Shown here: positions 4,332-45,298 of the stretch, piece by piece
How positions within the stretch are numbered: the stretch's first letter is position 1
How the letters are laid out: each line of letters begins with the position of its first letter
Source of the DNA: a virus
Taxonomy: Duplodnaviria > Caudoviricetes
IMG/VR virus record: IMGVR_UViG_3300048598_000287
Span: 96,001-160,000 of that record
Direction: 5' to 3' (one strand)
Length of the DNA: 64,000 bases
Notes under the pieces: generated by a model
What the model saw: the letters and a program-made list of their open reading frames with translations, nothing else
Told to the model about the DNA's origin: nothing
The model's database searches: none
Translations under genes and position numbers: made by a program

Positions 4332-4571
4332 ATGAATCCACTATTCGAATACGTACAGTTTGTCGAGGGGCATAAAAATTCAAAGGGAGAAGCCGCCCCA
4401 TGGGTCATAAAATCTCACGAAACCGGAAAAATCCTGTCGTCTCATAAATCAGAAGGAGATGCCAAAGAACATCTGAAGCAGATGCACATATTCAAAGAAT
4501 CAGTATCAAAACTTAATCTGGAACCACTAGAAGAATCCGCTGTTATTGAACTGTATGAAACTTGTTTTTAA
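4332..4571 (+). CDS. Small late protein carrying the shared F-x-E-S...AV..L(Y/H)...F motif at its C-terminus
   Basis: FKESVSKLNLEPLEESAVIELYETCF; AGGA RBS. Confidence 0.7.
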   Translation: MNPLFEYVQFVEGHKNSKGEAAPWVIKSHETGKILSSHKSEGDAKEHLKQMHIFKESVSKLNLEPLEESAVIELYETCF

Positions 4572-4590
4572 ACATTGATTAATATATTGG

Positions 4591-5244
4591 TTAGTTCACC
4601 ATAGTCGGATCGCCTTTGTCCAGAAGCTTTTCCAGCTTTTTCTGCTTGTATTTACTATATGTTTCCCCTATCTCACATTCGTCGAATATACAATTACCTG
4701 AAATGTATTTCTTCATCCAGTCCGATATGTCCGTTTTGAATTGTTCAATAGGATATGTATGATCAAACAGAACTGAAATATATAGAGGATTATCACATCC
4801 TGCGCAGAGAAATTTAGCACGCGTAATGCTTTCACATGGGGTCATGATGTAAAAATATATTGGATTTTTCAGTACTCCGGAAATGAACGCGTTTATGCCT
4901 TCTATAGGAGAATAGCTGTCATCGCCAGTATCGAATATTATCCGTAGTTCACGGTCGAAATGGATCTCGCGCATTTTAGGATTGTCCTCGGTACAATCTT
5001 TCGTATGAATATTCATTTCATGTATAGTTTGCTCGATATTCTTGATCTCGTTCCTAATAGTTTCGCCATTAACTATCGCTTCGGTACTGGCGTTAATTCC
5101 ATGCGCGTGGCAGAATGGATTGATGCGTTCATATTCTTCAGTGAGCAGCTTGATGTAGCTTTTCTGAGTATCAACCAGTGATATATATTCTTTAATTAGT
5201 CCGGATTCGTTATCCATTTCATGACCTCGTGTTGTTTGAATCAT
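4591..5244 (-). CDS. Hypothetical protein
   Basis: 217-aa ORF, ATGA overlap with glf. Confidence 0.6.
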   Translation of the reverse strand: MIQTTRGHEMDNESGLIKEYISLVDTQKSYIKLLTEEYERINPFCHAHGINASTEAIVNGETIRNEIKNIEQTIHEMNIHTKDCTEDNPKMREIHFDRELRIIFDTGDDSYSPIEGINAFISGVLKNPIYFYIMTPCESITRAKFLCAGCDNPLYISVLFDHTYPIEQFKTDISDWMKKYISGNCIFDECEIGETYSKYKQKKLEKLLDKGDPTMVN

Positions 5245-6407
5245 TTTTCATCCATGTTCACTTCCATCGCTGCTTTTATAGCATCATCCATATCCAGGTA
5301 TTTATATAGCCCAAGCCGGCCTACGGGAATGATATTTTTAGGCAACGAATTCCTGATCATGTTATAAGTATTCGCACTATCCTGATTATTTATAGGATAG
5401 CATGGTTCGTCATCTTTTCCACATATACCTGAATATTCATATGAACGTACGGTGGATGGAATATCCAGGCATTCCGAATTAAAATACTTATGCTCTATCG
5501 CCCGGGTGTATGGGACATCGTTACCGGTATAATTAATTACCGCGCAGCCCTGAGTATCCGATAATATTTCTTCCCTGAACCTTACGGTACGGTAAGGAAG
5601 AGCCCGTTCATTATGGGATACGTTGTCCGAAACGATGTCATCCAATGCCCCTGAATAATAGATCAGGTCATATTTCTTGGCCATTTCAGGAAATTCTGAC
5701 ATATGGGCGCCGAATATGATTTCATGCCCTCCGAACATATTTGAAATCCATTCGGTATATCCTTCTTCCGGTATTCCCTGATATGTATCTCCGAAATAAT
5801 TATTGTCAAAGGTAAACCTAAGCGGAATACGGCGTATTATGCCAGGAGCAAGCCGGTCGCACGGCATTCCCCATTGTTTTTCCGTGTAGCCTTTGATGAG
5901 CGTTTCATATATAGTCGTTCCAACCATCTGGATGGCCGCTTCTTCAAGATTGCATGGCAAATCATTTTCTTTAGCCGGATCCTTATGGATACGATCATAT
6001 CGATATGATGCGATTTCGTCATGTATCCTGTACATAGCTTCGCTAGGTGTATTTACTCCATCAAATATACGGGAGAATGTGTTCATGTTGAATGGAAGAT
6101 TATATACTTTTCCTGAAAATATAGCGATGGGCTGATGTATATATGGTCTGAAATGTCCATATCGATTAGCAAAATCCCATATTGATTTGTCATATGTATG
6201 AAATATATGCGCGCCATATTTATGAACAGTTATCTTTCGGGAACTATCCGACGCGTCTATCCCTATTTTTTCTGTATAGCAATTTCCGCCTATCGTATTC
6301 CTGGCTTCTACAATTGTTATATCTCCAGGGAGAATTTTCTTATCTATTAACCTGGTATAAATGACTGCATTAGTAAGTCCGGCTCCGACAAGCAGTATTT
6401 TAGTCAT
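5241..6407 (-). CDS. glf: UDP-galactopyranose mutase
   Basis: VGAGLT FAD motif, IGGNCY, HKYGAHIFHT, YTEKQWG, YQGIP, EPCYP, GRLGLYKYLDMD; start taken at MTKILLVG. Confidence 0.95.
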   Translation of the reverse strand: MTKILLVGAGLTNAVIYTRLIDKKILPGDITIVEARNTIGGNCYTEKIGIDASDSSRKITVHKYGAHIFHTYDKSIWDFANRYGHFRPYIHQPIAIFSGKVYNLPFNMNTFSRIFDGVNTPSEAMYRIHDEIASYRYDRIHKDPAKENDLPCNLEEAAIQMVGTTIYETLIKGYTEKQWGMPCDRLAPGIIRRIPLRFTFDNNYFGDTYQGIPEEGYTEWISNMFGGHEIIFGAHMSEFPEMAKKYDLIYYSGALDDIVSDNVSHNERALPYRTVRFREEILSDTQGCAVINYTGNDVPYTRAIEHKYFNSECLDIPSTVRSYEYSGICGKDDEPCYPINNQDSANTYNMIRNSLPKNIIPVGRLGLYKYLDMDDAIKAAMEVNMDEK

Positions 6408-6741
6408 TTTTAGATCCTTTTTTAAGTTCCTGCAGTCTTTCGGCTCGGGCATGAAATTCGCCGATCCATTTCATTAGCCGTCTCACATTATTGTAATATG
6501 CCGGGACGTGCTCGACTTGCTGGAGCGCCCCAGTCTTCTTGTTAAACAGGATTGAAGAGACATATGAAAAATCAGTTTCCTTTGTATATGTAAGGTATGC
6601 TGACACGTCTCCGGTGAAATTCATTTCCGCCGTAGTTATCCCGTCTCCATCGTCTGAATGGATGGTCATATGCCGCGCGGAGCATATTTCTGAAAAAGCG
6701 TTCACGGACAATATTCCCACATATGTATGATAGTCAGTCAT
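6400..6741 (-). CDS. Hypothetical protein
   Basis: ORF packed between nrdG and glf. Confidence 0.55.
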   Translation of the reverse strand: MTDYHTYVGILSVNAFSEICSARHMTIHSDDGDGITTAEMNFTGDVSAYLTYTKETDFSYVSSILFNKKTGALQQVEHVPAYYNNVRRLMKWIGEFHARAERLQELKKGSKND

Positions 6742-6742
6742 T

Positions 6743-7327
6743 TCAGTTTCCTTTCTGCAATTGTTCTTTCACCTGTATGCTATGAATGACTGGAGTGCCA
6801 TTATCTAGACTGCATGGAACGTCGATTATCCTCTGATTAGATGAACCGCGATACATCAGGCCTATGTCCCGCTTTGCAAGAATGAACGGTCCGTCAACTA
6901 GGATGTCTATCAATGTAAGTGCCGTATATATGTTATTCCCGTCTTGCTTGCTTAGTTTAAGCAGCTCTTCAAAAATATATCCGGTGAACACCACCGTGTT
7001 CATGTTCCGTTTCTTTGCGGCATATAGAATGGGTATTATCTCATCTGTCCAGTAGAATGGCTCGCCTCCGCTTATAGTTATCCCGTCTATGATGGGATTT
7101 TCATCCATTCCGGATATTATATCCTTTACAGTAACAATCTTCCCGCCAGACTTATCATGAGTTTCAGGATTATGACATCCCGGGCAATGTCTGGTACATC
7201 CCTGCGTGAATATTACCATCCTTATTCCAGGGCCGTCTACGAATGATTCCTTTTCCATTCCGGCCATTCGTATAGATTTTCCTTCGCAATTCACAAGGGT
7301 TTTATAATTTCCAAGGGAATCGGTCAT
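6743..7327 (-). CDS. nrdG: Anaerobic ribonucleotide reductase activating protein (radical SAM)
   Basis: SFVDGPGIR..FTQGCTRHCPGCHNPET, ISGGEP, DILVDGPF, RGSSNQRIID. Confidence 0.95.
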   Translation of the reverse strand: MTDSLGNYKTLVNCEGKSIRMAGMEKESFVDGPGIRMVIFTQGCTRHCPGCHNPETHDKSGGKIVTVKDIISGMDENPIIDGITISGGEPFYWTDEIIPILYAAKKRNMNTVVFTGYIFEELLKLSKQDGNNIYTALTLIDILVDGPFILAKRDIGLMYRGSSNQRIIDVPCSLDNGTPVIHSIQVKEQLQKGN

Positions 7328-8019
7328 TTCAGACCTTCTTTTTCGGGATCATTGGCGATGAACTCGGCGGCATATGGAAGATCCATTGCCCATTTTATGA
7401 AATGCTGCATCGATGCGTCACGCCGGCCTGACCATTCGTTAAGCTTATGATTTTTACGCTGATTGACCATTGACCGTATGTTTTCATAATTCATCGTTAC
7501 CGTACGGGTCTGGAGCCATGATTCCGGAAGAAGGCGTATAAGTTCTTTCCAATATGTAAAGTCCTTGGTATCCAGATACTTAAGTCGCAGGGCTTCCAGA
7601 TTATTTATAGTACGTGTCCATATATCATCAATGGCAGACTTGTCCACCGAATTCGTTGCATAGCAATAGTCATCCATTTCAAAACAGCCCAAAGTTATTT
7701 TCGTAGTGGACAGCTTGTGCATCTTGGATGTTGAATTAGCCACGGTGCCTACTTTATAAGTATCAAATTCAGACCAGAAATACATGGGGGCAGTAATATC
7801 CATGCTGACGAAGATCTGGCGTAGAAATTTACGGTGCTCTGTACCGCTGCGGATGAGAGTCTTTGCCAGAGCCATGTCCAATGGGCCTATTAAAAATGTG
7901 TGAGTCTCATCCCACTTACTGTCGCTTTTATCCCATGAATTCATTGGATTACGCATTCCACGCAGAGCGCCATCAAAATTATATACCGATGTATGTTCAA
8001 AATTCATATCATTCCTCAT
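7324..8019 (-). CDS. ThyX/Thy1-like phage protein
   Basis: ALRGMRNP..SDS, HRKFLRQI..DITAP.YFW.EFDTYKVGT..STS.MH, LLPESWLQTRT..NY, HKLNEW. Confidence 0.7.
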   Translation of the reverse strand: MRNDMNFEHTSVYNFDGALRGMRNPMNSWDKSDSKWDETHTFLIGPLDMALAKTLIRSGTEHRKFLRQIFVSMDITAPMYFWSEFDTYKVGTVANSTSKMHKLSTTKITLGCFEMDDYCYATNSVDKSAIDDIWTRTINNLEALRLKYLDTKDFTYWKELIRLLPESWLQTRTVTMNYENIRSMVNQRKNHKLNEWSGRRDASMQHFIKWAMDLPYAAEFIANDPEKEGLK

Positions 8020-8521
8020 TAATTTTTCCGGACATTTTCAAAAAGTCGCGGAGTTTTCTGTTGCTTTCATTAAGATCAATGTATTGCCAGCTTTGCGGCC
8101 CATGTTTGCCAACCATATTGGAAAATTCATCCCCAGTAACCGGAATAACCCAATCTATTATCCAGGCATATAGCCGTTTACCGCGGGAATATTTTTTAAT
8201 GTCATCTTCCGGAACGCATCCATCGGCGATAAGCTCCTCCATAGAATTTCCGGGCTCCTGCGTTCCTGATGTATAATCAGTTGATGCCCTACTAAGAGAT
8301 TTAATTTCAGACGGACGTTTGCTATTATAGCAGTCAACAGTAAGGATGCGGGAGACCTTGGCTATTCCAGAAATACGTCCATCAGGCTTAGTGGAATATA
8401 GCATCACCATGTTATCCCAATCCTTACGGTTAGGCAAGGTTTTCCTCCATTCCACGGTCTTTTTTCCTGAAATGATAAGATTGGCATATTTAGCCTTTAT
8501 GCTGAGTAATACGGCAGGCAT
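8009..8521 (-). CDS. ASCH-domain protein
   Basis: LLSIKAKYANLIISGKKTVEWRK, YSTKP, PQSWQY; AGGAGA RBS before ATG 8521. Confidence 0.8.
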   Translation of the reverse strand: MPAVLLSIKAKYANLIISGKKTVEWRKTLPNRKDWDNMVMLYSTKPDGRISGIAKVSRILTVDCYNSKRPSEIKSLSRASTDYTSGTQEPGNSMEELIADGCVPEDDIKKYSRGKRLYAWIIDWVIPVTGDEFSNMVGKHGPQSWQYIDLNESNRKLRDFLKMSGKINEE

Positions 8522-8613
8522 GATATCTCCTATTTGATTCAATTCAAATATATATTTTGTATATAGAATTTGCACATTCGATGGTAAAAAATATATTTTT
8601 CTGATGGATTAAT

Positions 8614-10098
8614 GTGAAATATATGGAAGATATTGTAGTTGCCATTACGTCAAAAAAAGATAGATTAAAGAAATGCGGGAATACGGTGAAATCTATCATT
8701 AATAGCTATCCCGATATGAGAGTCTCGATCACGGTTCCTGAAGAAGATGAATGCGTCATGAAAAGGCTCATGTCCGATGGATATTTCGGATCCCCATCGG
8801 ATTCCGGGAGAATCACGGTAATATATAAAAATTCCCCGCCCAGTAAATATAATAGACTAATATGGACAATGCTCGTCAATCCTGATTCACTTATAATATC
8901 GGCAAGTGACAGCATGATATATCACCCCGGATTTTTCGATGGACTTCTTGATATGTATCATTCATATCCGGAAAGCATATGCCGAATGTCCGCCTGCGAT
9001 GTAAGGGTATCATTTAATGGAAAAGATTATTCATCGGAATCAGTTTCCCCGTATGAACTGGATCATCGGCATATAATAAAACTAACATATGGCCCAGGGA
9101 CTATCTATCCTCCGGCCAATAAAACTGGGTTCAGCGAGCAATGGCAGAAATTCTTTTCCGGCAATCTTATAAGAGAAAACTGTTCTGAAGACGCCTATAA
9201 TGGGATGATCGCCGAATCGTTAGGAATAAAAATACGGACGGTTAATAAAAATACTATAGTCAATGATCCAAGAGCGGAAAAGGCAATTCGTGAAGCATAT
9301 GGAAGAATTTTTCCACGTCCGGTGATAAGTCAGGAAAATGCCGATACCATAAATGAAGACATTTCAATAATGACGGTATCTGCGGAAGGTAATGCCATCC
9401 CTGCCATGGCTGCAATATCTCCCATTCGCATTAGATTCAATGTCAATTCTGTACATAGCGGTAAAAATATAGATGATAAAAATCAATGGATGTGCGAGCT
9501 TACCGGACTGTATTATATGTGGAAAAACTGGAATGCCGGCATAGTAGGTCTTGAGCATTATCGCAGGTTCTTTACCGAGGAAGGGAAAAGTTACTCTCCC
9601 CATGAGTACACTCTTCTGGATGCATTCCGGATAAAAGAAATCCTAAACACGCATGATTTCATCGTGACATGTCATCAGCATGCATATGGAAATCCCGCTT
9701 ATTTATATATGACAGAATCAGGAAATACGCAGAAATTTTCCGTATGGCTTGATTTTCTGAACGAAACCACTCCTGGATTCAAGCAGTTCTGCATGGATTA
9801 CTTAACTAGGTCAGGAACCTTGATCTGCTGTAATATGTTCATTGCCAAAAAAACTGAAGCAGACGAGTATTGCGAATGGCTTTTTGCCAATATGGAAAAT
9901 TTCTTTAAACAATATCCATTAAATGACATGCAGGCAAGAATAATGGGATACATGGCGGAATTCACGTTCGGCGCATGGCTCATGTTCACAGGTAAACGGC
10001 TGTATATATGCAATCACATCAGATTTGACAAAGCATGCATAAATCTTGACGAAGTTGAAAGGACTACCATCCACCGGAATATAATAAGGAGTAAATGA
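8614..10098 (+). CDS. GT-A-like N-terminal domain fused to DUF4422 (GT111-like)
   Basis: C-half: NIDDKN..CELTGLYYMWKN..IVGLEHYRRFF..CNMFI..EYCEWLF..RIMGYMAE. Confidence 0.8.
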   Translation: MKYMEDIVVAITSKKDRLKKCGNTVKSIINSYPDMRVSITVPEEDECVMKRLMSDGYFGSPSDSGRITVIYKNSPPSKYNRLIWTMLVNPDSLIISASDSMIYHPGFFDGLLDMYHSYPESICRMSACDVRVSFNGKDYSSESVSPYELDHRHIIKLTYGPGTIYPPANKTGFSEQWQKFFSGNLIRENCSEDAYNGMIAESLGIKIRTVNKNTIVNDPRAEKAIREAYGRIFPRPVISQENADTINEDISIMTVSAEGNAIPAMAAISPIRIRFNVNSVHSGKNIDDKNQWMCELTGLYYMWKNWNAGIVGLEHYRRFFTEEGKSYSPHEYTLLDAFRIKEILNTHDFIVTCHQHAYGNPAYLYMTESGNTQKFSVWLDFLNETTPGFKQFCMDYLTRSGTLICCNMFIAKKTEADEYCEWLFANMENFFKQYPLNDMQARIMGYMAEFTFGAWLMFTGKRLYICNHIRFDKACINLDEVERTTIHRNIIRSK

Positions 10099-10099
10099 A

Positions 10100-11628: not shown

Positions 11629-11666
11629 GTTTTTATCCTTCCTAAAATTCCCTGCAATTCATATGT

Positions 11667-11744
11667 CAGTTTATATAAGATTTGCGGAAGAAAACTCCCG
11701 GAAGTCAATATGGAAGTTTTCTTCCCAAAATATTCTATAAACTA
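11667..11744. promoter_or_regulatory. Divergent late promoters (11667-11675 -, 11736-11744 +) enclosing two inward-facing IS left-end remnants
   Basis: CAGTTTAT|ATAAGATTTGCGGAAGAAAACTCCC ... GGAAGTTTTCTTCCCAAAATATTC-TATAAACTA. Confidence 0.6.
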
Positions 11745-11789
11745 TCACCAGCGTGGCTGGCTCACTCTCATTAATATAGAGGACCCTAT

Positions 11790-12614
11790 ATGGATATTGA
11801 ACGGAAGCTGTTTTCACCTACTCCGGAATGGATGCGGACCGTGTATGAAAAGTTCAACCGGATGTTTTTCGATAACGTCCTTCCCCATGATATAGACTTT
11901 GAGGTATCAAATACAACGAGCATGCTGGCTGACGCACGATACTGGTGCAACAGCAGACGGGCAAAAAATTGCACGATAAAAAATCATGGATTATATTTTG
12001 GATTATTCCGGATAAGAATATCAAAATATTATGACAACATGACTGAGCATGAAGCTGAAGAATTGATGGCGCACGAAATGATTCACATATATCAGTTTGC
12101 ATTCATAGACAAAAAAGAATGGAATTCACATGGAAGGCAATCCTCGCACGGATGGACGTTTACCGAATGGGTTGACAAGATTCGCCGGATAAGCGGAGGA
12201 AAGTGCATAGTCTCTCCTACATATGAACCGGTTGGATCATATCCAAAGCATACCATACGTGAACGCGAATATGAACTTGCCGAAAATAAGGCCGCCGATG
12301 AAATGGGCTTGGTGGTGTTCCCTACCGAACGGGATCCAAAAGATCCATATCATGTATGCTATAGAATATTCAAAAGCAAAGCCCTGTGTAATAAGGCCAA
12401 AAAATTTATAGAATCATCCTATAAAGATTGGAAACCTTTAGCTATATTTAAATCCGGCGAGAATCTGCATGGATATACATATTTCTTCTATGGTAAACCA
12501 AGAAAGAATGCATATAATGCAGGAAACTGGGAATCCGTAGATTATAGGGAACTTATAATGATGGATCGGTCAGGAGTAATAAAATTGAAACAGTTCCCAA
12601 AGGAGAAAAAATGA
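11790..12614 (+). CDS. SprT-like zinc metalloprotease
   Basis: YEKFNRMFF..LP, IRIS, LMAHEMIH, HGWTF. Confidence 0.8.
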   Translation: MDIERKLFSPTPEWMRTVYEKFNRMFFDNVLPHDIDFEVSNTTSMLADARYWCNSRRAKNCTIKNHGLYFGLFRIRISKYYDNMTEHEAEELMAHEMIHIYQFAFIDKKEWNSHGRQSSHGWTFTEWVDKIRRISGGKCIVSPTYEPVGSYPKHTIREREYELAENKAADEMGLVVFPTERDPKDPYHVCYRIFKSKALCNKAKKFIESSYKDWKPLAIFKSGENLHGYTYFFYGKPRKNAYNAGNWESVDYRELIMMDRSGVIKLKQFPKEKK

Positions 12615-12865
12615 ATCGGTTTTTAGAATCTCTGGAAGATATCCAGCTCGATGGAGATGCAAAGCAAGCGGTGGGAAAAATTTACCGGGCAATACAATCC
12701 CCGGAATACGATGATCTTGACATAGAAAAGGAGGCTTCTGAGCCTCCCAGTCTAGTTGAATTCGAAACACTTGGGTCAAATACTCCGGGAGTGACCGTGT
12801 CTGATGATGGACTGAAAATAACGCAGACCCTTCCTGATGGAACCGAAGTCATAACCGTTCAGTGA
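12611..12865 (+). CDS. Small acidic protein with the shared N-terminal motif
   Basis: FLESLEDIQLDGDAKQAVGKIYRAI. Confidence 0.65.
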   Translation: MNRFLESLEDIQLDGDAKQAVGKIYRAIQSPEYDDLDIEKEASEPPSLVEFETLGSNTPGVTVSDDGLKITQTLPDGTEVITVQ

Positions 12866-12866
12866 A

Positions 12867-13747: not shown

Positions 13748-14125
13748 TTACGATACAAAAAGCGACACAGCCGAAGCGTAGTCAGCCGGACTCATGCCAG
13801 TTGCCTTTGCCGCATCTTCTATATCAGCATCTCCGGTAGATATCCCGTCATCCATCGTGTCAGTCGATTCATTGATCATAGGGGAATTTTCTTTTCCATT
13901 ATCTTCATTTCCGCCGCATTCGCATTTAACGTCGCCGGGAACACCATCATCGCATTTGCAATTGGTTTTGCCACATGGTTTTCCATCACATGTGCATTCT
14001 TCTCCAGAAAAATCACATTCCTGATCTTCAAAATATATACGGTGAAGCGCCTGGACCGCTTCGAACTGCGCCTTGCTGGTACATACCGACTTCAAATAGC
14101 TCTCAAACATATCGCTTGCTTTCAT
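13748..14125 (-). CDS. Cys/acid-rich late protein with the shared N-terminal motif
   Basis: FESYLKSVCTSKAQFEAVQALHRIYFE then CxC repeats; TATAAACTA at 14153-14161. Confidence 0.65.
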   Translation of the reverse strand: MKASDMFESYLKSVCTSKAQFEAVQALHRIYFEDQECDFSGEECTCDGKPCGKTNCKCDDGVPGDVKCECGGNEDNGKENSPMINESTDTMDDGISTGDADIEDAAKATGMSPADYASAVSLFVS

Positions 14126-14152: not shown

Positions 14153-14161
14153 TAGTTTATA
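14153..14161 (-). promoter_or_regulatory. Putative late promoter TATAAACTA
   Basis: Recurring motif; no IS remnant attached here. Confidence 0.6.
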
Positions 14162-16898: not shown

Positions 16899-19412
16899 TC
16901 AAATATTTACCCTATTTTTTAGCTCGTTCAGCTTTCCGTCATTCCAGCTTTTCGTAATTGATTTACGAGGAGACCCACTTAAATATCCTGTTATTCTTCT
17001 TACACGGACGATATAATTTTCATCAGTATTTCCGCACTTTGGGCAGGCACCGTTAATTACGCCATGGAAATGGCATACCTTACCAGTGTCATCCATATGT
17101 ACACACGTGTCGCTATCCATTGTCACGGTGAAATATCCTAGGTCATGTTCATACATATAATTCATGCATTTTTCCACCCCATCGATATTTTTGCTGAGGT
17201 CGCCATCTATCTTGTAATAGAATATATGACCTGCATTTGTCATTTCATGGAACGGCGCTTCCCACTTGACCTTGTTCTCCAGTGTTGTTTTTACATCGAA
17301 CGGAAGCATATGCGAATTAGTGTAGTATCCCTTTCCGAACAGTTGAAACATATCAACGTCCTTTAGCTTAGGATTCTTTTCGAACTGATGCTTGTCTATG
17401 TTGCAGAATCTTCCTGCCGTAGCCTCGGCAGGAGTGGCGAAACAGCTCCAGTTAAGATGAGTTTCCTTCTGTGTCTTTACACAGAAATTATATATACGTC
17501 TGACAATGTCTTCGCCAAGCGGTTTTATGGATTCATCAGTTCCCAATGTCTTACCGGTAAGCAGAAGTATGGTTTCATACAGTCCGATATACCCTATGCT
17601 AAGGGTTCCCTGCTTCAATATCTCGCCGATATGGTCATGAATATCATGCGGTTTATCATCCGAAGTAAGATACAGTCCCTGCTGCATGGTGAACGGGAAA
17701 TTTTCATACATTTTATTTGATATCAAGTTAAATCTATCAATAAGTGATTTCTTGACCGCGTCCAGCATGTAATCAAGCTTTTCATAAAATATTTTTATTC
17801 GTCCATCTTCGGAATCGGAGGCGATATGCGCCTCTATCGCAAGCTTTGGCAGATTAAGCGTATGAAAAGCCAGGTTTCCCCTGCCCACCGTCTGTTCCGG
17901 CCCGTTTATATTGCCTATTACTCTTGTACGGCATCCCATGGTAGATACGGTGCTTTCTGGAATTATACGTTGCAGTTTTCTCTTGCATATCTGCCAGTAT
18001 TTTCCATTGACATTAACTTCCCATCTTGGGTATGTATCGTTTTCATGTTCAATGGAAGAATACTTAGCCATATCATCTGATCCTATCTTCTTTACCATCG
18101 TATCAGGGGAAAGGATGAATTCGGCATTATACTCATATCTGATATATTGAGCGTTGAATTTATTATCTACGCCAACGGCATTAGGGTAAAATCTTCTGGC
18201 AAGGCAGATTATGGCTTCATGCCTTAGATCATAATTAGGATCATCCTTGAGATAAGACACTCCCCTCATATATTTGAATATGAGGATAGGAAAAATCGCG
18301 GTGAGTCCATCCCCAAGGCCAGCCATCTGAGCTTTTATAAGATTATGTGAAAGCATTCTTCCACAAATAGACGTGTCCAATCCGAAGTTCAGGCTGGAAA
18401 AAGGAACCTGGTTTCCTGATCTGCTTTGCAGGGAATTGAGATTATGAATTAAGCCTTCCATCGCCTGATATGTGTCATCATCCGTTTTTCTTACTGCGGC
18501 GATAACCTGAGCCTTTCCGTATTTCGCATACATATTACGCTGACCGTCATCCAGCGACACGCCGGACTTTTTAAGTTCAGCCTTAATCTTTTTCTTATGG
18601 GCTTCTTCGTCATACGTTTCGTCAAGGTCAGCATATTCAGGAAGAGTGTATCTTTCCTTAGCGGCCATTTCTCCGGCAAGATTATCAATGAAGCTCATGT
18701 TAACGAAAGGGGCAAGCTCGAAGTCGAGATTAGTCGAAGCTATTCCGCCGAACTGCTGATTTGACTGAAGCTGAAGAATCACCGCGGTTATCTGGGCGGC
18801 GGTCTTTATATTGCTTGGATTACGGATGAATCCTGTCCCGCTGTCGAATCCATGAGAAAGAAGCTTACTGATGGGTGCGAAAAGACAATTGAACGTAAGG
18901 TCATACATGTTCAGGTCATGAATATGCATATATCCTTTAGTATGAAGCTCCGCAGTCTTTCGGTCAATGATATTGAGAAGGTCATACACCTTATTCGTCT
19001 CGGAGGCGATCTTTGCATATGCCCCTGCGGGAGTATTTCCTGCCTCGTTAGCGTTATCACGGAGGATGTTCGAGGATTTGATATCAGATTCCTTGATTTC
19101 CTTGATTGTGCTTATTATCTTGCTCTTTGTGTCGCGTACCCGATTACGCTCATTCCTGTACAGGATGAAATTCTTAGCTACCTCTGGGTATCCTTTCATT
19201 AGGACCGCTTCCACGGTATCCTGTATATGCTCTACGCCTATATTGTTCTTTTCATAGGTTTCAAGAGATTCGCATACCTTATCGGTGAGTGATTCAAGAA
19301 TATCGTCATCGGCGATTTTTTGCGTTGCTGCAAAAGCGTTCTTTATAGCATTAAGTATTTTACTTGGGTTGAACTTCCTTCTTCTTCCATCTCTCTTAAT
19401 TACGTTCTTCAT
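16899..19412 (-). CDS. nrdD: Anaerobic (class III) ribonucleoside-triphosphate reductase with ATP cone
   Basis: VIKRDGR cone, HIHDL, QFGG, MGCRT, TPAE, YTNSH, RVRRITGYL glycyl-radical loop. Confidence 0.97.
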   Translation of the reverse strand: MKNVIKRDGRRRKFNPSKILNAIKNAFAATQKIADDDILESLTDKVCESLETYEKNNIGVEHIQDTVEAVLMKGYPEVAKNFILYRNERNRVRDTKSKIISTIKEIKESDIKSSNILRDNANEAGNTPAGAYAKIASETNKVYDLLNIIDRKTAELHTKGYMHIHDLNMYDLTFNCLFAPISKLLSHGFDSGTGFIRNPSNIKTAAQITAVILQLQSNQQFGGIASTNLDFELAPFVNMSFIDNLAGEMAAKERYTLPEYADLDETYDEEAHKKKIKAELKKSGVSLDDGQRNMYAKYGKAQVIAAVRKTDDDTYQAMEGLIHNLNSLQSRSGNQVPFSSLNFGLDTSICGRMLSHNLIKAQMAGLGDGLTAIFPILIFKYMRGVSYLKDDPNYDLRHEAIICLARRFYPNAVGVDNKFNAQYIRYEYNAEFILSPDTMVKKIGSDDMAKYSSIEHENDTYPRWEVNVNGKYWQICKRKLQRIIPESTVSTMGCRTRVIGNINGPEQTVGRGNLAFHTLNLPKLAIEAHIASDSEDGRIKIFYEKLDYMLDAVKKSLIDRFNLISNKMYENFPFTMQQGLYLTSDDKPHDIHDHIGEILKQGTLSIGYIGLYETILLLTGKTLGTDESIKPLGEDIVRRIYNFCVKTQKETHLNWSCFATPAEATAGRFCNIDKHQFEKNPKLKDVDMFQLFGKGYYTNSHMLPFDVKTTLENKVKWEAPFHEMTNAGHIFYYKIDGDLSKNIDGVEKCMNYMYEHDLGYFTVTMDSDTCVHMDDTGKVCHFHGVINGACPKCGNTDENYIVRVRRITGYLSGSPRKSITKSWNDGKLNELKNRVNI

Positions 19413-33870: not shown

Positions 33871-34388
33871 GACCAGTCTCCCCCATGCGAATAAATATCC
33901 TGATCTCCGGTGTTTAACGTTATGCCAAAAAGATAATTTCCGGTCTTTTTAGATGTCACGTTTAGTCTTCCTTCTATTCCCCCACTGGGTATCTGCTTTA
34001 TAGATATTCCGAAATCATCAGTACTGTTTATCCGTTCATTGGTTACACGGTATACGGCAGGGGTATAATACATGTCCAGATTTGAAAGAATGAATTCTTT
34101 TAGTGCATCCTTACTTTCGAATTTGCGTATTCTCCCATTTATAAGTTCGTTATGAAACCAATATGTATATCTGTTAACTGTATGCGAAGCCTTTCGGTAT
34201 AGTTTCTCTATTCCACGGTAAGTAAAAAATTCATCCGGATATGCATCGATGTAATAGATGTAATTTGCCTCGCGATGATGAAAGCATTCCTCGAACAGCG
34301 CCGAAACCGCCGAAGATTGCGCTTCAGTAAGGCCAAGACGGTCTATTGAATCGTAGAAAAGAACGGCTTGTTCAAGGAATCCGGTCAT
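33867..34388 (-). CDS. Late protein with the shared N-terminal motif
   Basis: FYDSIDRLGLTEAQSSAVSALFEECF. Confidence 0.65.
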   Translation of the reverse strand: MTGFLEQAVLFYDSIDRLGLTEAQSSAVSALFEECFHHREANYIYYIDAYPDEFFTYRGIEKLYRKASHTVNRYTYWFHNELINGRIRKFESKDALKEFILSNLDMYYTPAVYRVTNERINSTDDFGISIKQIPSGGIEGRLNVTSKKTGNYLFGITLNTGDQDIYSHGGDWS

Positions 34389-35008
34389 TAGCGGGCCTCG
34401 TCCTCGAAGAATCTGGCAAGATGATATTTTATGTTAGTAATTTCATCCAGCATGACATCTATGGAACTGTTAAGACCATACGTACGTTTATCGTCAAGCT
34501 TCTCCCTAAAATGAGTGAACTCTTCTAGATCCGAATGTATGGAAGCGGCGAAAGCATCGCGATCGGCGATGTCAACCACGCGTTTCCATAGATCCATGCT
34601 TATCTTCTCGTTGAACATGGATACATACGTTTCGGCGGTGCTGTCCCGCATTTTTCCGTATAGTTCATATGCCCGCTGGGAAAGTTCATGCAATGCCTTT
34701 GATTCTGCGTTCCAGTGATAATTCTGATATGAATTGCTCTTTGCTATAAGCAATTGCAGAACGGCTGTTATCAGCTGTTTGCAATCCGCATCATCGTTGA
34801 ATTTATCATCCGATAACTCGTCCGGATTTTTCCCTGGATTTTCTTCATGCGTTTCTTCAGAAGATTCTTCCTTGTCAGTTTCGGCAGCTACCGGCTTACC
34901 GGCAGCTTCATATATCGCTTTATGGATTTCAGAAACAGCCTGGATGGTGTTTCCATCTATACCTGCACGTTGTAATGATTCGGTAAAAATTTTATATGCG
35001 CTCTTCAT
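34388..35008 (-). CDS. Dps/ferritin-like protein with the shared N-terminal motif
   Basis: FTESLQRAGIDGNTIQAVSEIHKAIYE; NYHWN...LHE...D..AE four-helix-bundle motif. Confidence 0.7.
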   Translation of the reverse strand: MKSAYKIFTESLQRAGIDGNTIQAVSEIHKAIYEAAGKPVAAETDKEESSEETHEENPGKNPDELSDDKFNDDADCKQLITAVLQLLIAKSNSYQNYHWNAESKALHELSQRAYELYGKMRDSTAETYVSMFNEKISMDLWKRVVDIADRDAFAASIHSDLEEFTHFREKLDDKRTYGLNSSIDVMLDEITNIKYHLARFFEDEAR

Positions 35009-35034: not shown

Positions 35035-35043
35035 TAGTTTATA
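35035..35043 (-). promoter_or_regulatory. Putative late promoter TATAAACTA
   Basis: Upstream of the Dps-like/neck operon. Confidence 0.6.
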
Positions 35044-36471: not shown

Positions 36472-36474
36472 TCA

Positions 36475-36738
36475 TCATCTCCCGGCATAATATGAATATA
36501 TGTATCTATTTCCTTTATATTGTCGATCGTTTTTTAATATGATAGATATCCGTTCGGTTTCATCGGAATTAAGTTTATCCGCCGACTTCTTAGCATCTTC
36601 CATAGAAAATAACGCATCACCTTCGATGGTAGGTTGCATAATGGACATATCCATCATGTTCAGGTCCTTTTCATACCATTTCATGTCATATTTTATGACA
36701 TAAAAAATATGGATACCCTTATTAGGCATTTGATTCAT
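36475..36738 (-). CDS. Hypothetical protein
   Basis: ORF in operon. Confidence 0.5.
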   Translation of the reverse strand: MNQMPNKGIHIFYVIKYDMKWYEKDLNMMDMSIMQPTIEGDALFSMEDAKKSADKLNSDETERISIILKNDRQYKGNRYIYSYYAGR

Positions 36739-37984: not shown

Positions 37985-38034
37985 ATTATCCTTCGGTTGC
38001 GTTAAATATGTTTACTTTTCTAAAATATATTTTT

Positions 38035-39180: not shown

Positions 39181-39856
39181 GTCCGAGTTCCTTTTGATGT
39201 TGTTTGCTATCTTCTTCGGTAAAAAACGATATGAGCCGGTTCATTTCATCCGGGGTTTCCTCTATTATTCCATCTTCGGATAGAGCCTTCTTTTCATTAG
39301 CATCTTTCTGTATGGTTATGGCGCGGAGTTCTTCTTCCTGGCGAATCTTTATGGTAAGCTGGAATAGCTTGTCCAAGGTCCCAGTTACACTGGATATCAT
39401 AGATGCAACCGATGCCCACATTTTATCACTGATATCCACGGTAGGGTTTATCTGAACCTGCAGCTTATCAAGGAATGCCTTCGCTATATCATATAATTGA
39501 TGCGCCTGCTCCCGAATTTTCATTCTATCCATGTCAAGCATTTCCGGAGTTATCGGCCCGGATGATCCCGATAAGCTGTCCTGCAATTTTATCTGGGAAT
39601 GCCCGGCCTCCAACATCTGGGCATTTACTTTTATCCGGTTAACCATCTGCCGGCTTTCTTCCAGTCCTTCCTTGGTGGATCCCAGTGGAAGCTTAAGTTT
39701 TTCTTCCAATGCGGAGAAGACGTCTTTCTTGGGATCGTCATGCGGTGGGTATGCTTCTTTTTTATGAATATTCTTCTTATCATCACCGGAAGATGCATCC
39801 GAATCATCTGTCCATGGCATTTTCTGGTCCCATGGATTAAACGGCTGTTCACTCAT
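39155..39856 (-). CDS. Possible small terminase (gp16-like)
   Basis: Helical protein; MWASVASMISSVTGTLDKLFQL resembles the gp16 core; weak. Confidence 0.4.
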   Translation of the reverse strand: MSEQPFNPWDQKMPWTDDSDASSGDDKKNIHKKEAYPPHDDPKKDVFSALEEKLKLPLGSTKEGLEESRQMVNRIKVNAQMLEAGHSQIKLQDSLSGSSGPITPEMLDMDRMKIREQAHQLYDIAKAFLDKLQVQINPTVDISDKMWASVASMISSVTGTLDKLFQLTIKIRQEEELRAITIQKDANEKKALSEDGIIEETPDEMNRLISFFTEEDSKQHQKELGHDTTEFGN

Positions 39857-40329
39857 ATCAATCCCCTCTTGCCGGCTTCAATAGCAATTGTGTGCAGCTG
39901 GATTATTGTATCTATGTTTTTAGGATAATATCTTACCTGTTCGGCGAATGCCTTCAAATTCTCGATGTAATGTTTTTGTTTATTCAATGCGGTTTTCTGG
40001 GCGCTTATGCTGGATTCTCCATCAAGCATTAGATCAACTGAATCTTTGGTCTTTTCATATTTCAACCTCTGATTCATCATGGCATCAAATTTTTCCGCCC
40101 TTGCTTCCTTATATTTTCCTTCCATTTCATCATATTTAAGCTGTTCCTGAAAAACAAGCCCATTGGCCTCTATAAGGGCGTCGCCTATGTTATATGTGGC
40201 ATTATGTATCATTTTTTCGATGTCAAATTTTCCGCTATCATCTTTCGTCTCAAGTTTGGATTTCATCCATCGGCTAAGCTTCTTCACCGTGTCATTGTCT
40301 ATGAATTGTGGGAGATCACTCTGAACCAT
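39853..40329 (-). CDS. uvsY: Recombination mediator UvsY-like
   Basis: KTKDSVDLMLDGE...I..L......NIDTII....IEAG matches the UvsY C-half pattern. Confidence 0.65.
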   Translation of the reverse strand: MVQSDLPQFIDNDTVKKLSRWMKSKLETKDDSGKFDIEKMIHNATYNIGDALIEANGLVFQEQLKYDEMEGKYKEARAEKFDAMMNQRLKYEKTKDSVDLMLDGESSISAQKTALNKQKHYIENLKAFAEQVRYYPKNIDTIIQLHTIAIEAGKRGLI

Positions 40330-40358
40330 TATTCCTCGCGCATTGATTCCGATTATAA

Positions 40359-40387
40359 AATATACTTATTTAAGGCAGAAAAAGCAA
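40359..40387 (-). promoter_or_regulatory. Sigma70-type promoter TTGCTT-N17-TATATT
   Basis: Exact spacing upstream of uvsY. Confidence 0.5.
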
Positions 40388-40404
40388 GCGCTTGCGTTAA
40401 TTAA

Positions 40405-40830
40405 TCATTTGACTGCCTGGCCAAGTCTATCGGTCATATCCCCTCCCCGACGCCGGTCAAATATTATCTGAGAATCATTAAACCCGTTCGTATATGTGTA
40501 TGATGATATTGCGACTGCGCATGCCGCTCCGTAAAACTGGTAGAATTCATCCGAGGAAGAAAATTTGCTCACCATCGTTTTGCCATAACGGTCAAAATAT
40601 GCCTGAAATTCATCTTTGGTTAGCGGTTGGCCATTGATTATTATTTTCTTTCCGGTATACATCAAAGTGCAGAAAATAGACATCAGCACAGACATGTCGC
40701 GGATGACTGATTGATTCACAGAAGGAAATGCCCTTGATAGGATAATGGTAAGCACATTTACCTTTTCCTTTCCAACCGCAGCCTCGCCTTCTGTATATAT
40801 GGAATTAAGCGCCTTATCATCTGTATGCAT
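40405..40830 (-). CDS. Hypothetical late protein
   Basis: Preceded by TATAAACTC (40853-40861). Confidence 0.6.
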   Translation of the reverse strand: MHTDDKALNSIYTEGEAAVGKEKVNVLTIILSRAFPSVNQSVIRDMSVLMSIFCTLMYTGKKIIINGQPLTKDEFQAYFDRYGKTMVSKFSSSDEFYQFYGAACAVAISSYTYTNGFNDSQIIFDRRRGGDMTDRLGQAVK

Positions 40831-40860
40831 ATTACTATCCAGTAGTTTAATAGAGTTTAT

Positions 40861-40911
40861 ATAAGATTTGCGGAAGAAACCATCTGAACTTTAGCCAGGA
40901 AATGGGAATCC
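40861..40911 (+). mobile_element. IS200/IS605-type left-end remnant
   Basis: TTTAT|ATAAGATTTGCGGAAGAAACC...CTTTAGCCAGG. Confidence 0.6.
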
Positions 40912-40912
40912 A

Positions 40913-42562
40913 TTAATTTGACGCTTCAACCATTGCGCCAAGCTTGTGCTGTTCCTGCATTGCCTCTGGTGACTTTATGTAATCTATCGCATCCACATAT
41001 TTAGCCCTCATGTCATCGGTAAGACGTAGCTGCTCCTGCTCGGTAAGTATTTCGATTTCCTCATAATTACCATAATAGAACGTAGACTGCAGATAATATA
41101 TAGCCCAGTATAGCGCGGTCACGTGGTCATCATGCATTCCTCCGCTACCTCCCCATACATTGCTAGTCTTCTGCGTGAACGACATTAGTTCCATTATCGT
41201 CAATTTATCTTTTACCTGGATATATCCTCTCTGGACATACATTTTGAGAAGAACGACGACCTTGCTCTTCATAGTAGGCGTGGCCCAAAGCCCGCGGCAC
41301 ATATTATCAAAATTGATTATATTAGGATATTGGGCGACGGTAAAGAAATAGTTATACGCGCAGCTTCCCGGACCGTTGTATTCTATTATGAGATATGGAA
41401 ACTGATAAAAGCGCAACATGATGTTAGCTATATGGCAAAAGTCATTTATGCTTACCGTGTTGGAAGACATGGTAAATACCTGTTCGCATTTAATATTGCT
41501 TTTCGCGAGAAGTATGTGCAAAACATGAGAATCCTTTCGTATTCCGAACCCGGTATCAATAGATGCGACATATGAATATCCCCGCGATTCGACATTTTTC
41601 TCCGGCCATTTGAAGACGCGCATTGATATGTCGTTCGTTATTGACTTTAGATTCTCCGGCCATATAGATCCGTCAAACTTAAGAGGTTCCATCGCCTTAA
41701 GCTTTTCCAGACATCGGTAATCGATGAGCGTGATGCTGGATCCTATGAATTCGCATTCATATTCCTGGCGGAATCTCTGATCTCCGACCTTTTCTCGTTC
41801 TGCTGCTGCCCATTCTTCAGTATGGCTAGGCACCTGATTCCATATCACCGTGGATTTAATGTATCGGTTCTTTGCGCCATCCTTTTCGGCAACCTCTTCA
41901 TCGATGGCCTTGCACCACATGTCATAAAAATGGTTCATTCCCTTTGGGGTGGACGTTATGATACAACGGGTCGTGTTTCCGGACGATATGGCGGGAAACA
42001 CCGATGCCATGAATTCCTCGGCGAGGCCAGACCGTAGAATGGCGAACTCGTCAAGATATAGAAGATTGATAGCGAATCCGCGGATGTTATCCGGAGAGGA
42101 TGAGGATACTATTATTCTGCTGTTGTTTGACAGTTGAATGGATGTTTTGTTCCATAGTTTAACTCCGGGTTGAAGCCACATAGGGAGCTTACTATATGAG
42201 TCACGGAGCTGCTGCATCTGTTCCTTGGCAAGGGAAAGTTTGTTTCCTATCATGGCGACAAGCTGATCCTTATGGAAAATAACCCACCATAGGATAAATC
42301 CGCGCACTACGGTGGATTTTCCTACCTGTCTTGACCATTTGTTTATGTTGAACCTATATTTCAAGAACCTACGTATCGCACGTTCTTGAAAATCATATAG
42401 GGCGAATAGCTGAGATCCATGGTCCAGCGTATTTATATACACATAATGCCGGATGAAATATATCGGGTCAAGGGCGCATTTCTTAAGCTCCTTTAGCTGA
42501 GTCATGGTGACTCTGACAGGTTCGTTCGCGTCCCGTAATCCTAATATTCCGTTAAATGCCAT
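40913..42562 (-). CDS. terL: Terminase large subunit (gp17-like)
   Basis: DPIYFI, SRQVGKST, LYLDEFA, TSTPKGMNHFY, FRQEYECEF, HDDHV. Confidence 0.95.
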   Translation of the reverse strand: MAFNGILGLRDANEPVRVTMTQLKELKKCALDPIYFIRHYVYINTLDHGSQLFALYDFQERAIRRFLKYRFNINKWSRQVGKSTVVRGFILWWVIFHKDQLVAMIGNKLSLAKEQMQQLRDSYSKLPMWLQPGVKLWNKTSIQLSNNSRIIVSSSSPDNIRGFAINLLYLDEFAILRSGLAEEFMASVFPAISSGNTTRCIITSTPKGMNHFYDMWCKAIDEEVAEKDGAKNRYIKSTVIWNQVPSHTEEWAAAEREKVGDQRFRQEYECEFIGSSITLIDYRCLEKLKAMEPLKFDGSIWPENLKSITNDISMRVFKWPEKNVESRGYSYVASIDTGFGIRKDSHVLHILLAKSNIKCEQVFTMSSNTVSINDFCHIANIMLRFYQFPYLIIEYNGPGSCAYNYFFTVAQYPNIINFDNMCRGLWATPTMKSKVVVLLKMYVQRGYIQVKDKLTIMELMSFTQKTSNVWGGSGGMHDDHVTALYWAIYYLQSTFYYGNYEEIEILTEQEQLRLTDDMRAKYVDAIDYIKSPEAMQEQHKLGAMVEASN

Positions 42563-42564
42563 TA

Positions 42565-44196
42565 CTATTTACCTAATATGTATTTGTTATATTCAGCTTG
42601 CGTCATGTTATGCGCAGCCAGAGTTCCGTTATGCAACTTATTAAGACGGCGTCTTTCATCCGCCTTCTGTTGCAGTGCGGATATTTCATTGTGTGAACAC
42701 TGGAATGCGTAATCAGCATCTTCCGGAGAAAGTTTTTCCTTCTCTCCTGTAGTCGGATCCTTATACCACCCTCTCACCAGCATCCCCTTGACCGAATCAT
42801 CTCCCGAATTATACCATTTAGTTATAGTATCCTTCCCGAAAGACTTTACAGATGCCTGTGCCGATTCGGATGATGCATCATTGGATTTGCCTGGATTTCC
42901 TACCGATTTTCCTGCGACCGCATTAGCTGACGATGCTGTTAATTCGTTACCATAATCCTGCTGCCCATGAGTAATATCGTCGCCTCCAACTGAACCCAAT
43001 TCGCCCAATCTTGACTGACCTCTGGTATTAGGATTCATCGCCCGTTCGGCATATATTTTCCTGTCTTCCGGAACCATCAGGAAAGCCGGGGCCGGCATAT
43101 ATTTCATATATTCACTGTTTGGATCAGATAGCATCTTTTTAAGAAGCGCCTTCCCGTTTTCATTCACTGGATTATAATTTAGATCAAGACCGGTGTTAGC
43201 CGAAAAATATTTTCCGAACAATTGTTTGTCTGTTATGGTTGAGTTTCTGTCAAATCCCATGCTTGCATAATATTTATCTTTATCGATAACTTTTCCTGAC
43301 TTATCCTCTCCTTCCATTCCTAGCTGCGTGGAACTTTTTGACGCAAGCGTGGATGCGTCACTGATTCTAAGCTTAGCGGCAAAATCAGGAAGGAAATAAG
43401 TAGTGTAATAATATGATTTAAATTCTTCAAGCATTTCTTGTTTGGCTTTTTCCGTGTTTATATAAAACAGATCGGAATGTTCATCCCAGTACGTTTCGAA
43501 CTTTTTCATGAACTCATCGTTAGCCTTCTTGTTTATTACCGTCTTTCCCTGAGAATCCATGCCAATTGAATAATTAAAATATTCCTTTGGGTGAGATTTG
43601 GCCAGCACAGGATCCGTTATGTTAAGCTCGGAATCAAACCCGTAATTATTCTGCAAAGACTCCTGGGAATCTCGGGAGCCAACTCCGGACGCCCCGAAAT
43701 TTATGGGAAACTGCGTTGCAATCGCGTCCAATTTATCAAGAAGCGTTCCGGACGTAGCATTCATTATTCCGATGGCTTTATCAGCCGATGAAGAGATACT
43801 GGCACTTCCAGGAAAATTTTTCGCCACTTTATTGCTTATTGCATTTTGCGCGGTCTCCATTGCTGCCTGTTCTTCGGCCGCCTTTCCATATTCTTCATGC
43901 ATTTTATAAATTCCCCTGGCCACATCAACTAATCCCCATGCGATAGACGCTATATATAACACGGCTCCAATTCCAGGCACTCCGATCACGGCGCTTTTCT
44001 TTCCTATGAAGCAGCCGAGAACCATCAGTCCGACGCCCATTCCCATATTAAGCACACCGTCTGCGCTTTCCAGTTCAGGTGACGAATATATTTCCTTATG
44101 CAGGCTAATTATCGTGCCAACTGAATCTGGATCAAGCCCGTAAATATCTTTAAGGGAATTTTCGAACAGTATGTATTTTTCATTGTTTGATAACAT
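42565..44196 (-). CDS. Late protein with shared N-terminal motif and Gly-rich TM hairpin (candidate ejected protein)
   Basis: FENSLKDIYGLDPDSVGTIISLHKEIY; GMGVGLMVLGCFIG..GVPGIGAVLYIASIAWG. Confidence 0.6.
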   Translation of the reverse strand: MLSNNEKYILFENSLKDIYGLDPDSVGTIISLHKEIYSSPELESADGVLNMGMGVGLMVLGCFIGKKSAVIGVPGIGAVLYIASIAWGLVDVARGIYKMHEEYGKAAEEQAAMETAQNAISNKVAKNFPGSASISSSADKAIGIMNATSGTLLDKLDAIATQFPINFGASGVGSRDSQESLQNNYGFDSELNITDPVLAKSHPKEYFNYSIGMDSQGKTVINKKANDEFMKKFETYWDEHSDLFYINTEKAKQEMLEEFKSYYYTTYFLPDFAAKLRISDASTLASKSSTQLGMEGEDKSGKVIDKDKYYASMGFDRNSTITDKQLFGKYFSANTGLDLNYNPVNENGKALLKKMLSDPNSEYMKYMPAPAFLMVPEDRKIYAERAMNPNTRGQSRLGELGSVGGDDITHGQQDYGNELTASSANAVAGKSVGNPGKSNDASSESAQASVKSFGKDTITKWYNSGDDSVKGMLVRGWYKDPTTGEKEKLSPEDADYAFQCSHNEISALQQKADERRRLNKLHNGTLAAHNMTQAEYNKYILGK

Positions 44197-45298
44197 TATT
44201 CACCCCTCCTTTAAGGCTTAGCACGTATTTCACGAATTCTGCTATGACGGTGGCGGAAACTCCAGTATTTTTTAACTTTCCATCAATTACGCCATATAAT
44301 ACATCCGCGGTTGATTTGACCTCTTCTGAAGCACCAGGAATCACGGAAGACAATGCAGCGGCGGCTTCCTGTGATAATCCTGACGATTTTCCTATTGTTC
44401 CCAGATGCAGCCATCTTGTTCCAACATATAGGCCTTGCCCGAATCCGCTGAATTCAGCATCGGGAGCATTTTTCATTTCTTCCGGAAGACTAACCGAGGT
44501 GTCATTCATTTTAAGAAGTTTGCTTCCGGCGCATTCTCCAACAAAAGAATTGAATTCCTTCACGCCGTTTTCATCATGGCACCACATGGCTGGGCAAAGC
44601 TTACCGGTCACATTATAATGCATGTATATGTTTTTTTCATCGATGGAATATTTATCCATAAGCCATCGTACCAGTTTCTTTGTGTTTTCTTTCACTGCAT
44701 CGGTGAAATTCCAGTCATGTTCTTCCGGCTGTGGATGATCCACCTTTTTGGTTTTAGAACTACACATTTCTATCGATATTGAATTTTTATTCATTATTTT
44801 TCCATACATCGCTGCAAATCCGGATGCTTTCGGATTAGCCATCGTTTGCTTCTCAGATCCCACGGCCATGGCTTCCATATTGGCGGGATCAGGATTATAT
44901 TGATAAATCTCACTGTCATCGACGATAAAATCAGCGGCAGTATGCTGAAGTTCTCCATTTTTATCATTAGGGCTTCCTTTTGCGAAAAATCCAGCGACAG
45001 ACAACGCTGCACCGCTTCCTGATGACTGACTTGCCGTGTAATGAAGAACTATATATGATATTTTCCTGTTTGGCGCCGAAATTATTCCACTTGCTGATTT
45101 GTCTGAATTTACCTTAACATTGAATTCATCCCCAGATGATGCCATTTTATTGTTTTCATTCTTATCGGATCCGGAAGCGGTTTTATTATCATCGTCTGAA
45201 GCCTCCATAAGAGATCGATAGATCGATACAATGGCAGATTTACGTATTCCATCTATTGATGGATTATTTTCAATCGATTCTACGAAGATGTCTTTCAT
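44180..45298 (-). CDS. N-acetylmuramoyl-L-alanine amidase (Amidase_2) with shared N-terminal motif
   Basis: YIVLHYTA, ADFIVDD, SISIEMC, HYNVTGKLCP. Confidence 0.85.
   Translation of the reverse strand: MKDIFVESIENNPSIDGIRKSAIVSIYRSLMEASDDDNKTASGSDKNENNKMASSGDEFNVKVNSDKSASGIISAPNRKISYIVLHYTASQSSGSGAALSVAGFFAKGSPNDKNGELQHTAADFIVDDSEIYQYNPDPANMEAMAVGSEKQTMANPKASGFAAMYGKIMNKNSISIEMCSSKTKKVDHPQPEEHDWNFTDAVKENTKKLVRWLMDKYSIDEKNIYMHYNVTGKLCPAMWCHDENGVKEFNSFVGECAGSKLLKMNDTSVSLPEEMKNAPDAEFSGFGQGLYVGTRWLHLGTIGKSSGLSQEAAAALSSVIPGASEEVKSTADVLYGVIDGKLKNTGVSATVIAEFVKYVLSLKGGVNNVIKQ

Follow-up and report, generated by a model that had tools for sequence, protein, structure and literature searches.

We analysed a 64,000-nucleotide window, bases 96001-160000 of the 277,197-bp IMG/VR record IMGVR_UViG_3300048598_000287 (CheckV completeness ~66%), from an uncultivated giant phage of the T4-like, not the phiKZ-like, head lineage. 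At least 17 proteins of this genome, otherwise unrelated, carry a common leader of 33-36 residues, hereafter the tag, which is N-terminal in 16 of the 17. By sequence comparison, the tag is real and confined to a narrow clade of phages. It is probably a longer version of phage T4's capsid targeting sequence (CTS), a link that rests on analogy and genomic context.

The tag family and its carriers

A preliminary description of the window had reported seven open reading frames (ORFs) with a common motif. All seven are present, with the segments it quoted in place, and start at 4332 (+), 12611 (+), 14125 (-), 34388 (-), 35008 (-), 44196 (-), and 45298 (-). The motif begins 2-10 residues past the start Met in six of them. 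As that description stated, the tag of ORF 4332 is C-terminal, the sole such case among the 17 carriers, and alignment with MAFFT reproduced the one-residue insertions it had noted in ORFs 44196 and 45298. The seven are as follows.

4332-4571, + strand: 79-aa ORF; 53-aa N-terminal domain, then the tag (nt 4491-4568) up to the stop codon, with no cargo after it
12611-12865, + strand: 84-aa ORF; tag at nt 12620-12697, without a terminal Glu; ortholog of the same architecture in related genome G001
13748-14125, - strand: 125-aa ORF; tag at nt 14027-14107, ending IYFE; Cys-rich acidic cargo; G001 ortholog L049
33867-34388, - strand: 173-aa ORF; tag at nt 34281-34358, LFE then ECF; cargo without a known family
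34388-35008, - strand: 206-aa ORF; tag at nt 34907-34987, ending IYE before A; disordered acidic linker; predicted Dps-fold four-helix bundle
42565-44196, - strand: 543-aa ORF; tag at nt 44086-44166; transmembrane hairpin at residues 45-95; large domain without a known family
44180-45298, - strand: 372-aa ORF; tag at nt 45203-45286, ending LME before A; acidic linker; Amidase_2 domain

Leave-one-out tests and shuffling rule out a chance or low-complexity artefact. Comparison with shuffled ORFs, a check put forward with the original motif, was made with a slightly widened pattern (the four-residue gap extended to 4-5, and A/T and F/Y/M permitted); five annotated ORFs matched, versus none in 300 within-protein shuffles of the proteome. 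Hidden Markov models (HMMs) leaving out one member at a time, scored against all 2842 stop-to-stop frames at E<0.05, regained four of the seven members; ORFs 14125, 45298, and 44196 are weaker alone, and 14125 is the weakest of the original seven. Every one of these models also drew in N-terminal carriers from beyond the window. When N-terminal 50-mers were compared all against all by BLAST, independently of the pattern, the carriers fell into one component, to which a spurious link also joined an unrelated paralog family. The longest exact stretch common to the tag-coding DNA is 11 nt, so the likeness is kept at the protein level and the tags are not recent DNA repeats or recombination boxes.

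The shared tag of the preliminary description stands, and its family size of seven does not, since the source genome has at least 17 carriers. The HMM search of the full genome and its relatives that it had proposed was extended with a profile (A1) built from 16 of the 17 carriers, giving 22 matches in G001 (419 kb) and 24 in G002 (422 kb). Both are related records, complete with terminal repeats, and their proteases are 73-76% and their capsid proteins 88-89% identical to those of the source genome. In the 21 distinct G001 carriers examined, the tag lies within ~10 residues of the inferred start Met, the start of L051 being uncertain. A search of 1.84 billion representative proteins gave only 29 matches at E<0.001; a few of them are repeat artefacts, and nearly all begin at residues 1-10. 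Megablast of the window against GenBank phages gave zero matches, and a literature search found no published description of this leader family.

A sister clade (G003-G005) has a capsid protein ~70% identical to that of the source genome. The A1 profile had no match in G003 at E<=0.1, de novo clustering of sister-clade N-termini found no tag family, and an HMM from the N-termini of sister-clade Dps-like proteins found no additional member. Weak N-terminal matches in this clade numbered seven in real sequences versus none in decoys. The sister-clade Dps-like orthologs have a shorter, diverged leader ending E↓A (here and below, the arrow marks a cleavage point, whether candidate or established).

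The domains attached to the tag differ, as the preliminary description had it: its amidase, Dps fold, transmembrane hairpin, and Cys-rich protein were upheld by Pfam, a structure model, and composition. ORF 45298 matches Amidase_2 (Pfam E=6e-18), ORF 42565-44196 has two hydrophobic stretches within residues 45-95, and ORF 13748-14125 has 9 Cys. The cargo of ORF 34388-35008 is supported as a Dps fold by modelling: every top Foldseek match listed for its bundle is a Dps-family or related ferritin-like protein (TM score ~0.7 by target, E ~3e-3). Pfam identified SLT, PG_binding, and Nudix domains in other cargos, and several members have peptidoglycan-active or peptidoglycan-binding domains. For most cargos and neighbouring genes, PHROGs and Pfam matched no family. 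A word-indexed homolog search with the Dps-like protein returned only itself, and an atlas search with the tagged protein encoded beside the protease returned only viral hypothetical clusters.

The clearest case of modularity is a pair of Nudix paralogs, one tagged (genome 201716-202297) and one untagged (203159-203608), that lie 1.4 kb apart and are 47% identical. Their similarity opens at residue 48 in the tagged protein and at residue 2 in its untagged paralog, exactly past the tag and linker, and we therefore consider the tag portable. In the sister clade, the protease-adjacent tagged protein has a tag-less ortholog. The 53-aa N-terminal domain of ORF 4332 (window 4332-4490), which reads K-G-E-x-A-x-W-V-I-K-S-H-E-T-G-K..., has no Pfam match; a metagenomic protein of 221 aa (P0025) has the same domain, then the tag, then cargo. 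Another metagenomic protein, P0015 (83 aa), consists of two tandem tags without cargo.

Anatomy of the tag and its terminal site

The consensus is F-x-E-S-[I/V]-x-K-L-G-L-x6-A-[V/I]-x2-[L/I]-[H/Y/R]-x2-[C/I/L]-[F/Y/M/L]-E; the next residue is A, S, G, N, D, or E. The tag is predicted to fold as an amphipathic helix, a turn at K-L-G-L, and a second helix. An AF2 model of the 206-aa protein (34388-35008) has helices at residues 4-14 and 19-36 separated by a turn (pLDDT ~70-77), a disordered and acidic stretch at residues 37-71, and a confident four-helix bundle at residues 72-205. The preliminary description had called the element a portable helical hairpin. Its portability is borne out by the Nudix paralogs, and the hairpin stands as an AF2 prediction, set apart from the cargo by a disordered linker. 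The length of that acidic linker, which joins the tag to the Dps-fold cargo, runs from ~5 residues in the sister clade to ~45 in G000, ~70 in G001, and ~90 in G002. Six Dps-like orthologs, drawn from both clades, are invariant at K, F, and E in helix 1, at a single Val in helix 2, and at the E-A pair that ends the tag.

The net charge of the tags ranges from -5 to +1, and their amphipathic helices lack a hydrophobic core. Because the tags are acidic or neutral and have neither a basic N-region nor such a core, they are not export signals, and Sec, Tat, and SAR signals were ruled out.

The last tag column is Glu in 12 of the 17 carriers, preceded by C, I, or L at the third position from the end (P3) and F, Y, M, or L at P2, and Glu occupies this column in most of the 21 G001 carriers. 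The endings to which attention had been drawn are all there: IYE (35008), LME (45298), YFE (14125), and E-L-E (44196), the last lying five residues past the tag.

Gene neighbourhood and known packaging systems

Of the 39 copies of the motif TATAAACTA in the 277-kb genome, 30 lie no more than 60 nt upstream of a start on the same strand, typically at 32-36 nt. As had been claimed for a promoter-like motif, each of the seven window ORFs belongs to a unit headed by it:

4300-4308, + strand: TATAAACTA, 32 nt before the start of ORF 4332
11736-11744, + strand: TATAAACTA, heading the unit of 11790-12614 and 12611-12865
14153-14161, - strand: TATAAACTA, 36 nt before the start of ORF 14125
35035-35043, - strand: TATAAACTA, heading the unit of ORF 35008, then 34388
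45326-45334, - strand: TATAAACTA, heading the unit of ORFs 45298 and 44196, then the large terminase gene

Further copies of TATAAACTA in the window are at 45376, 54293, and 54621, and the motif also heads the portal, tail, and other large structural units. It resembles, presumably as a variant, the T4 late promoter TATAAATA, and is likely a late promoter, although this assignment is putative and comes from the sequence.

Tagged genes are found next to the protease gene on its upstream side, downstream of the capsid protein gene, and upstream of the terminase gene, in units headed by TATAAACTA. ORF 42565-44196 is immediately upstream of the large terminase gene within such a unit. The head genes identified were:

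window 40913-42562, - strand: T4-type large terminase, last gene of the unit that opens with two tagged genes
genome 196919-198625: gp20 portal (PF07230)
genome 198773-200284: gp23 major capsid protein (PF07068, E=8e-65)
genome 267640-268362: gp21-family (Peptidase_S77) prohead protease (PF03420, 54 bits; phrog_207, E=8e-31)

A 316-aa helical protein, conserved across the clade and without a family match, is encoded downstream of the protease, where T4 has gp22; we treat it as a candidate scaffold. It has 3.8 [LIMC]-x-E sites per 100 residues versus 1.3 in the proteome, a ~2.8-fold excess that is weak and biased by composition. BLASTP aligned the capsid protein F-L-P-E↓S with F-L-T-E↓A of T4 gp23, where L-T-E↓A is what we take to be the gp21 maturation cleavage site; the sister-clade capsid protein has [L/M]-x-E↓[S/A] at the aligned site. 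A complex prediction for the scaffold, protease, and tag scored 0.00 versus a mark of 0.32, was run without controls, and is evidence neither way. The head module is split in the source genome, with the portal and capsid protein genes (196919-200284) ~67 kb from those for the protease and scaffold (267640-269314); in the sister clade (L039, G003) the portal, capsid protein, protease, and scaffold genes are contiguous.

In T4, the CTS is all that diverse internal proteins have in common; it directs them to the scaffolding core, and gp21 then removes it (PMC3012670, PMC5694885). The CTS of IPI, IPII, IPIII, and Alt is like the tag in being an N-terminal leader on unrelated proteins, and its end, a hydrophobic residue, any residue, and Glu, then a small residue, is resembled by that of many tags; read from the T4 genome, the leaders are MKTYQEFIAE↓A (IPII, IPIII) and MKTFKEF...ITE↓A (IPI). 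Late genes are involved in both cases, and both phages encode a gp21-family protease, gp20 portal, gp23 capsid protein, and gp17 terminase. By contrast, T4 has ~4-5 carriers versus ~17-24 per genome here, and the present family also stands apart in frequently having Cys at P3, in carrying the tag once at the C-terminus, and in including tag-only proteins. In a few carriers a K-T-Y-x-x-F resemblance to the T4 leaders is visible by eye only.

Giant phages offer a second comparison. SPN3US has ejection proteins with N-terminal propeptides, one of them followed by a transmembrane domain (PMC5694885), the same order as in window ORF 42565-44196. The substrates of SPN3US gp245 and phiKZ gp175 resemble the tagged proteins in that many internal or ejection proteins have N-terminal propeptides cut after x-x-Glu. 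However, these propeptides are mostly 111-254 residues long, share no single motif across many unrelated proteins, and, in SPN3US, are cut after A-x-E (PMC10052503). In phage P1, the N-terminal 30 residues of DarB suffice to encapsidate a reporter; by its description this signal is N-terminal and of similar length, but it belongs to one protein of a stepwise-loaded system, whereas the motif here is shared by >20 proteins (PMC9024508). The helix-turn-helix coat-binding domain of P22 scaffolding protein and the cargo-loading peptides of encapsulins are likewise short modules that tether cargo inside an HK97-fold shell; they are usually C-terminal, and that of P22 is basic, whereas the tags are N-terminal and acidic or neutral. 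Encapsulins typically take ferritin-like or Dps-like cargo.

Several features of the genomes touch on the host or on other repeated N-termini. The window encodes an anaerobic ribonucleotide reductase, NrdD (16899-19412, - strand), that is 33-35% identical to NrdD of gut and Clostridioides phages, and this resemblance suggests that the host is an anaerobe. The cargo of a tagged metagenomic protein of 234 aa (P0021) looks by eye like a Fibrobacter succinogenes major paralogous domain, a possible hint of host range. N-terminal clustering also surfaced two big paralog families before the window, at genome 8-58 kb and 80-85 kb, with ~18 proteins beginning MAELTIEEARKIY and ~21 W-Y-D/YD-repeat proteins. 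In G003, nine paralogs (175968-177820 and 318939-328278) have a common N-terminal M-R-T-I-R-x-x-V-F-E-T-N-S-S-S-x-H that is unrelated to the tag.

Candidate functions and their implications

The interpretation we favour is that the tag is a long form of the T4 CTS, which we consider probable by analogy. Leader-bearing proteins expressed late would be drawn into the scaffolding core of the prohead, the gp21-family protease would cut after the terminal Glu of the leader, and the mature cargo would stay in the head and exit with the DNA. The cargo set would comprise peptidoglycan hydrolases and binders, a Nudix hydrolase, Dps-fold and membrane-hairpin proteins, and many proteins without a known family. 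More tentatively, and with somewhat more doubt than confidence, we suggest that one 35-residue helix-turn-helix address marks the whole packaged and injected set, ~22-24 proteins per genome in a clade of ~420-kb megaphages, with tag-only and tandem-tag proteins serving as core adaptors or cross-linkers. The preliminary description had reached a similar reading, which is partly supported, by the portability, the predicted hairpin, the late-like units beside head genes, the gp21-family protease, the L-x-E site of the capsid protein, and the terminal Glu.

A number of observations weigh against a capsid address of the T4 type. At 33-36 residues, with a helix-turn-helix predicted, the tag exceeds the T4 CTS of 10-19 residues two- to threefold, and the tag HMM matched nothing in the whole T4 genome at E<=10 or among gp20, gp21, gp22, gp23, gp24, gp67, and gp68. 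The preliminary description had pointed to proteins of the scaffold and core as places to look, and neither the T4 core proteins nor the N-termini of the clade's scaffold are similar to the tag; a likeness by eye to the capsid-protein propeptide or scaffold N-terminus, as if the tag were a copy of one of them, was rejected by hhalign (probability 0.1-0.2% for both clade N-termini). At the candidate cleavage site, P3 is frequently Cys rather than Leu or Ile, with a strict L/I in only about half of the carriers, and in five of the 17 the final column is not Glu. In three of these five, L-[F/Y]-E stands four residues before that column; Glu is missing from both positions in the other two, ORFs 12611 and 44196. 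Conservation between orthologs is mixed, the tag being more conserved than the cargo in five pairs and less so for the Nudix and protease-adjacent proteins, and the notion that the tag is consistently the better conserved part was dropped. By sequence searches, the sister clade has no comparable multi-member tag family, even with a capsid protein 70% identical. A pure address label leaves ORF 4332, with its C-terminal tag, and the tandem-tag P0015 unexplained. Finally, we infer the binding partner, cleavage, encapsidation, and ejection of the tagged proteins from analogy, and this too counts against the reading.

ORF 4332 and P0015 would fit better if the hairpin is an assembly module. Tags would then bundle mutually, or on a multivalent hub, and so construct the core or inner body inside a very large head; the domains joined to them would be passengers in that structure, and the tags might stay uncut. 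Capsids with 420 kb may require additional internal scaffolding, a highly conserved tagged protein is encoded beside the protease, where T4 has gp67/gp68, and a 35-residue amphipathic helix-turn-helix is longer than a label requires. We nevertheless consider this explanation unlikely, passengers and absent cleavage included: the conserved terminal Glu and invariant E-A junction suggest processing, the long disordered linkers resemble tethers to free cargo, and amidase, SLT, and Nudix domains suit effectors better than lattice components.

Two further explanations place the tagged proteins elsewhere. The enrichment of the cargo in Amidase_2, SLT, and PG_binding domains could reflect a leader that acts outside the virion, as a peptide that docks with a phage chaperone or regulator, a degron, or a signal that localises or holds proteins for cell-wall attack at lysis, given that we infer the virion location of the tagged proteins. 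This is quite unlikely, as the tags do not have the character of Sec, Tat, or SAR signals, the Nudix and Dps-fold cargos are of cytoplasmic type, the genes lie within head modules (protease, capsid protein, terminase) and not beside recognisable lysis genes, and ~22-24 carriers per genome far exceed what a lysis system needs. Cell-wall hydrolases are also commonly tail-associated, and four tagged genes follow a gp15-like tail sheath stabiliser gene in one unit, with a tagged SLT gene facing the stabiliser gene, so an address for the tail lumen, baseplate hub, or neck deserves mention. T4-like tails, however, assemble independently of the prohead protease, and the candidate protease site at the end of the tag speaks against a tail compartment. 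With >20 proteins of up to 1346 aa, which exceed the room in a tail lumen, and with other tagged genes flanking those for the capsid protein, protease, and terminase, we regard this as highly improbable.

If the leader is a capsid address, the set of injected proteins of uncultivated megaphages could be listed from sequence alone. This would be a direct route to first-strike effectors, including proteins that breach the cell wall, possible anti-defence proteins, and proteins that protect DNA. The principle of the T4 CTS would scale from a handful of internal proteins to >20, and a longer, structured targeting module would be available for trial in the packaging of foreign proteins. Should the tag indeed mark the whole packaged set, these phages would have the largest phage cargo-delivery repertoire known, served by a targeting module of a new, long form. 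The existence of tag-only and tandem-tag proteins is a hint that the leaders may also have a part in constructing the core inside very large heads.

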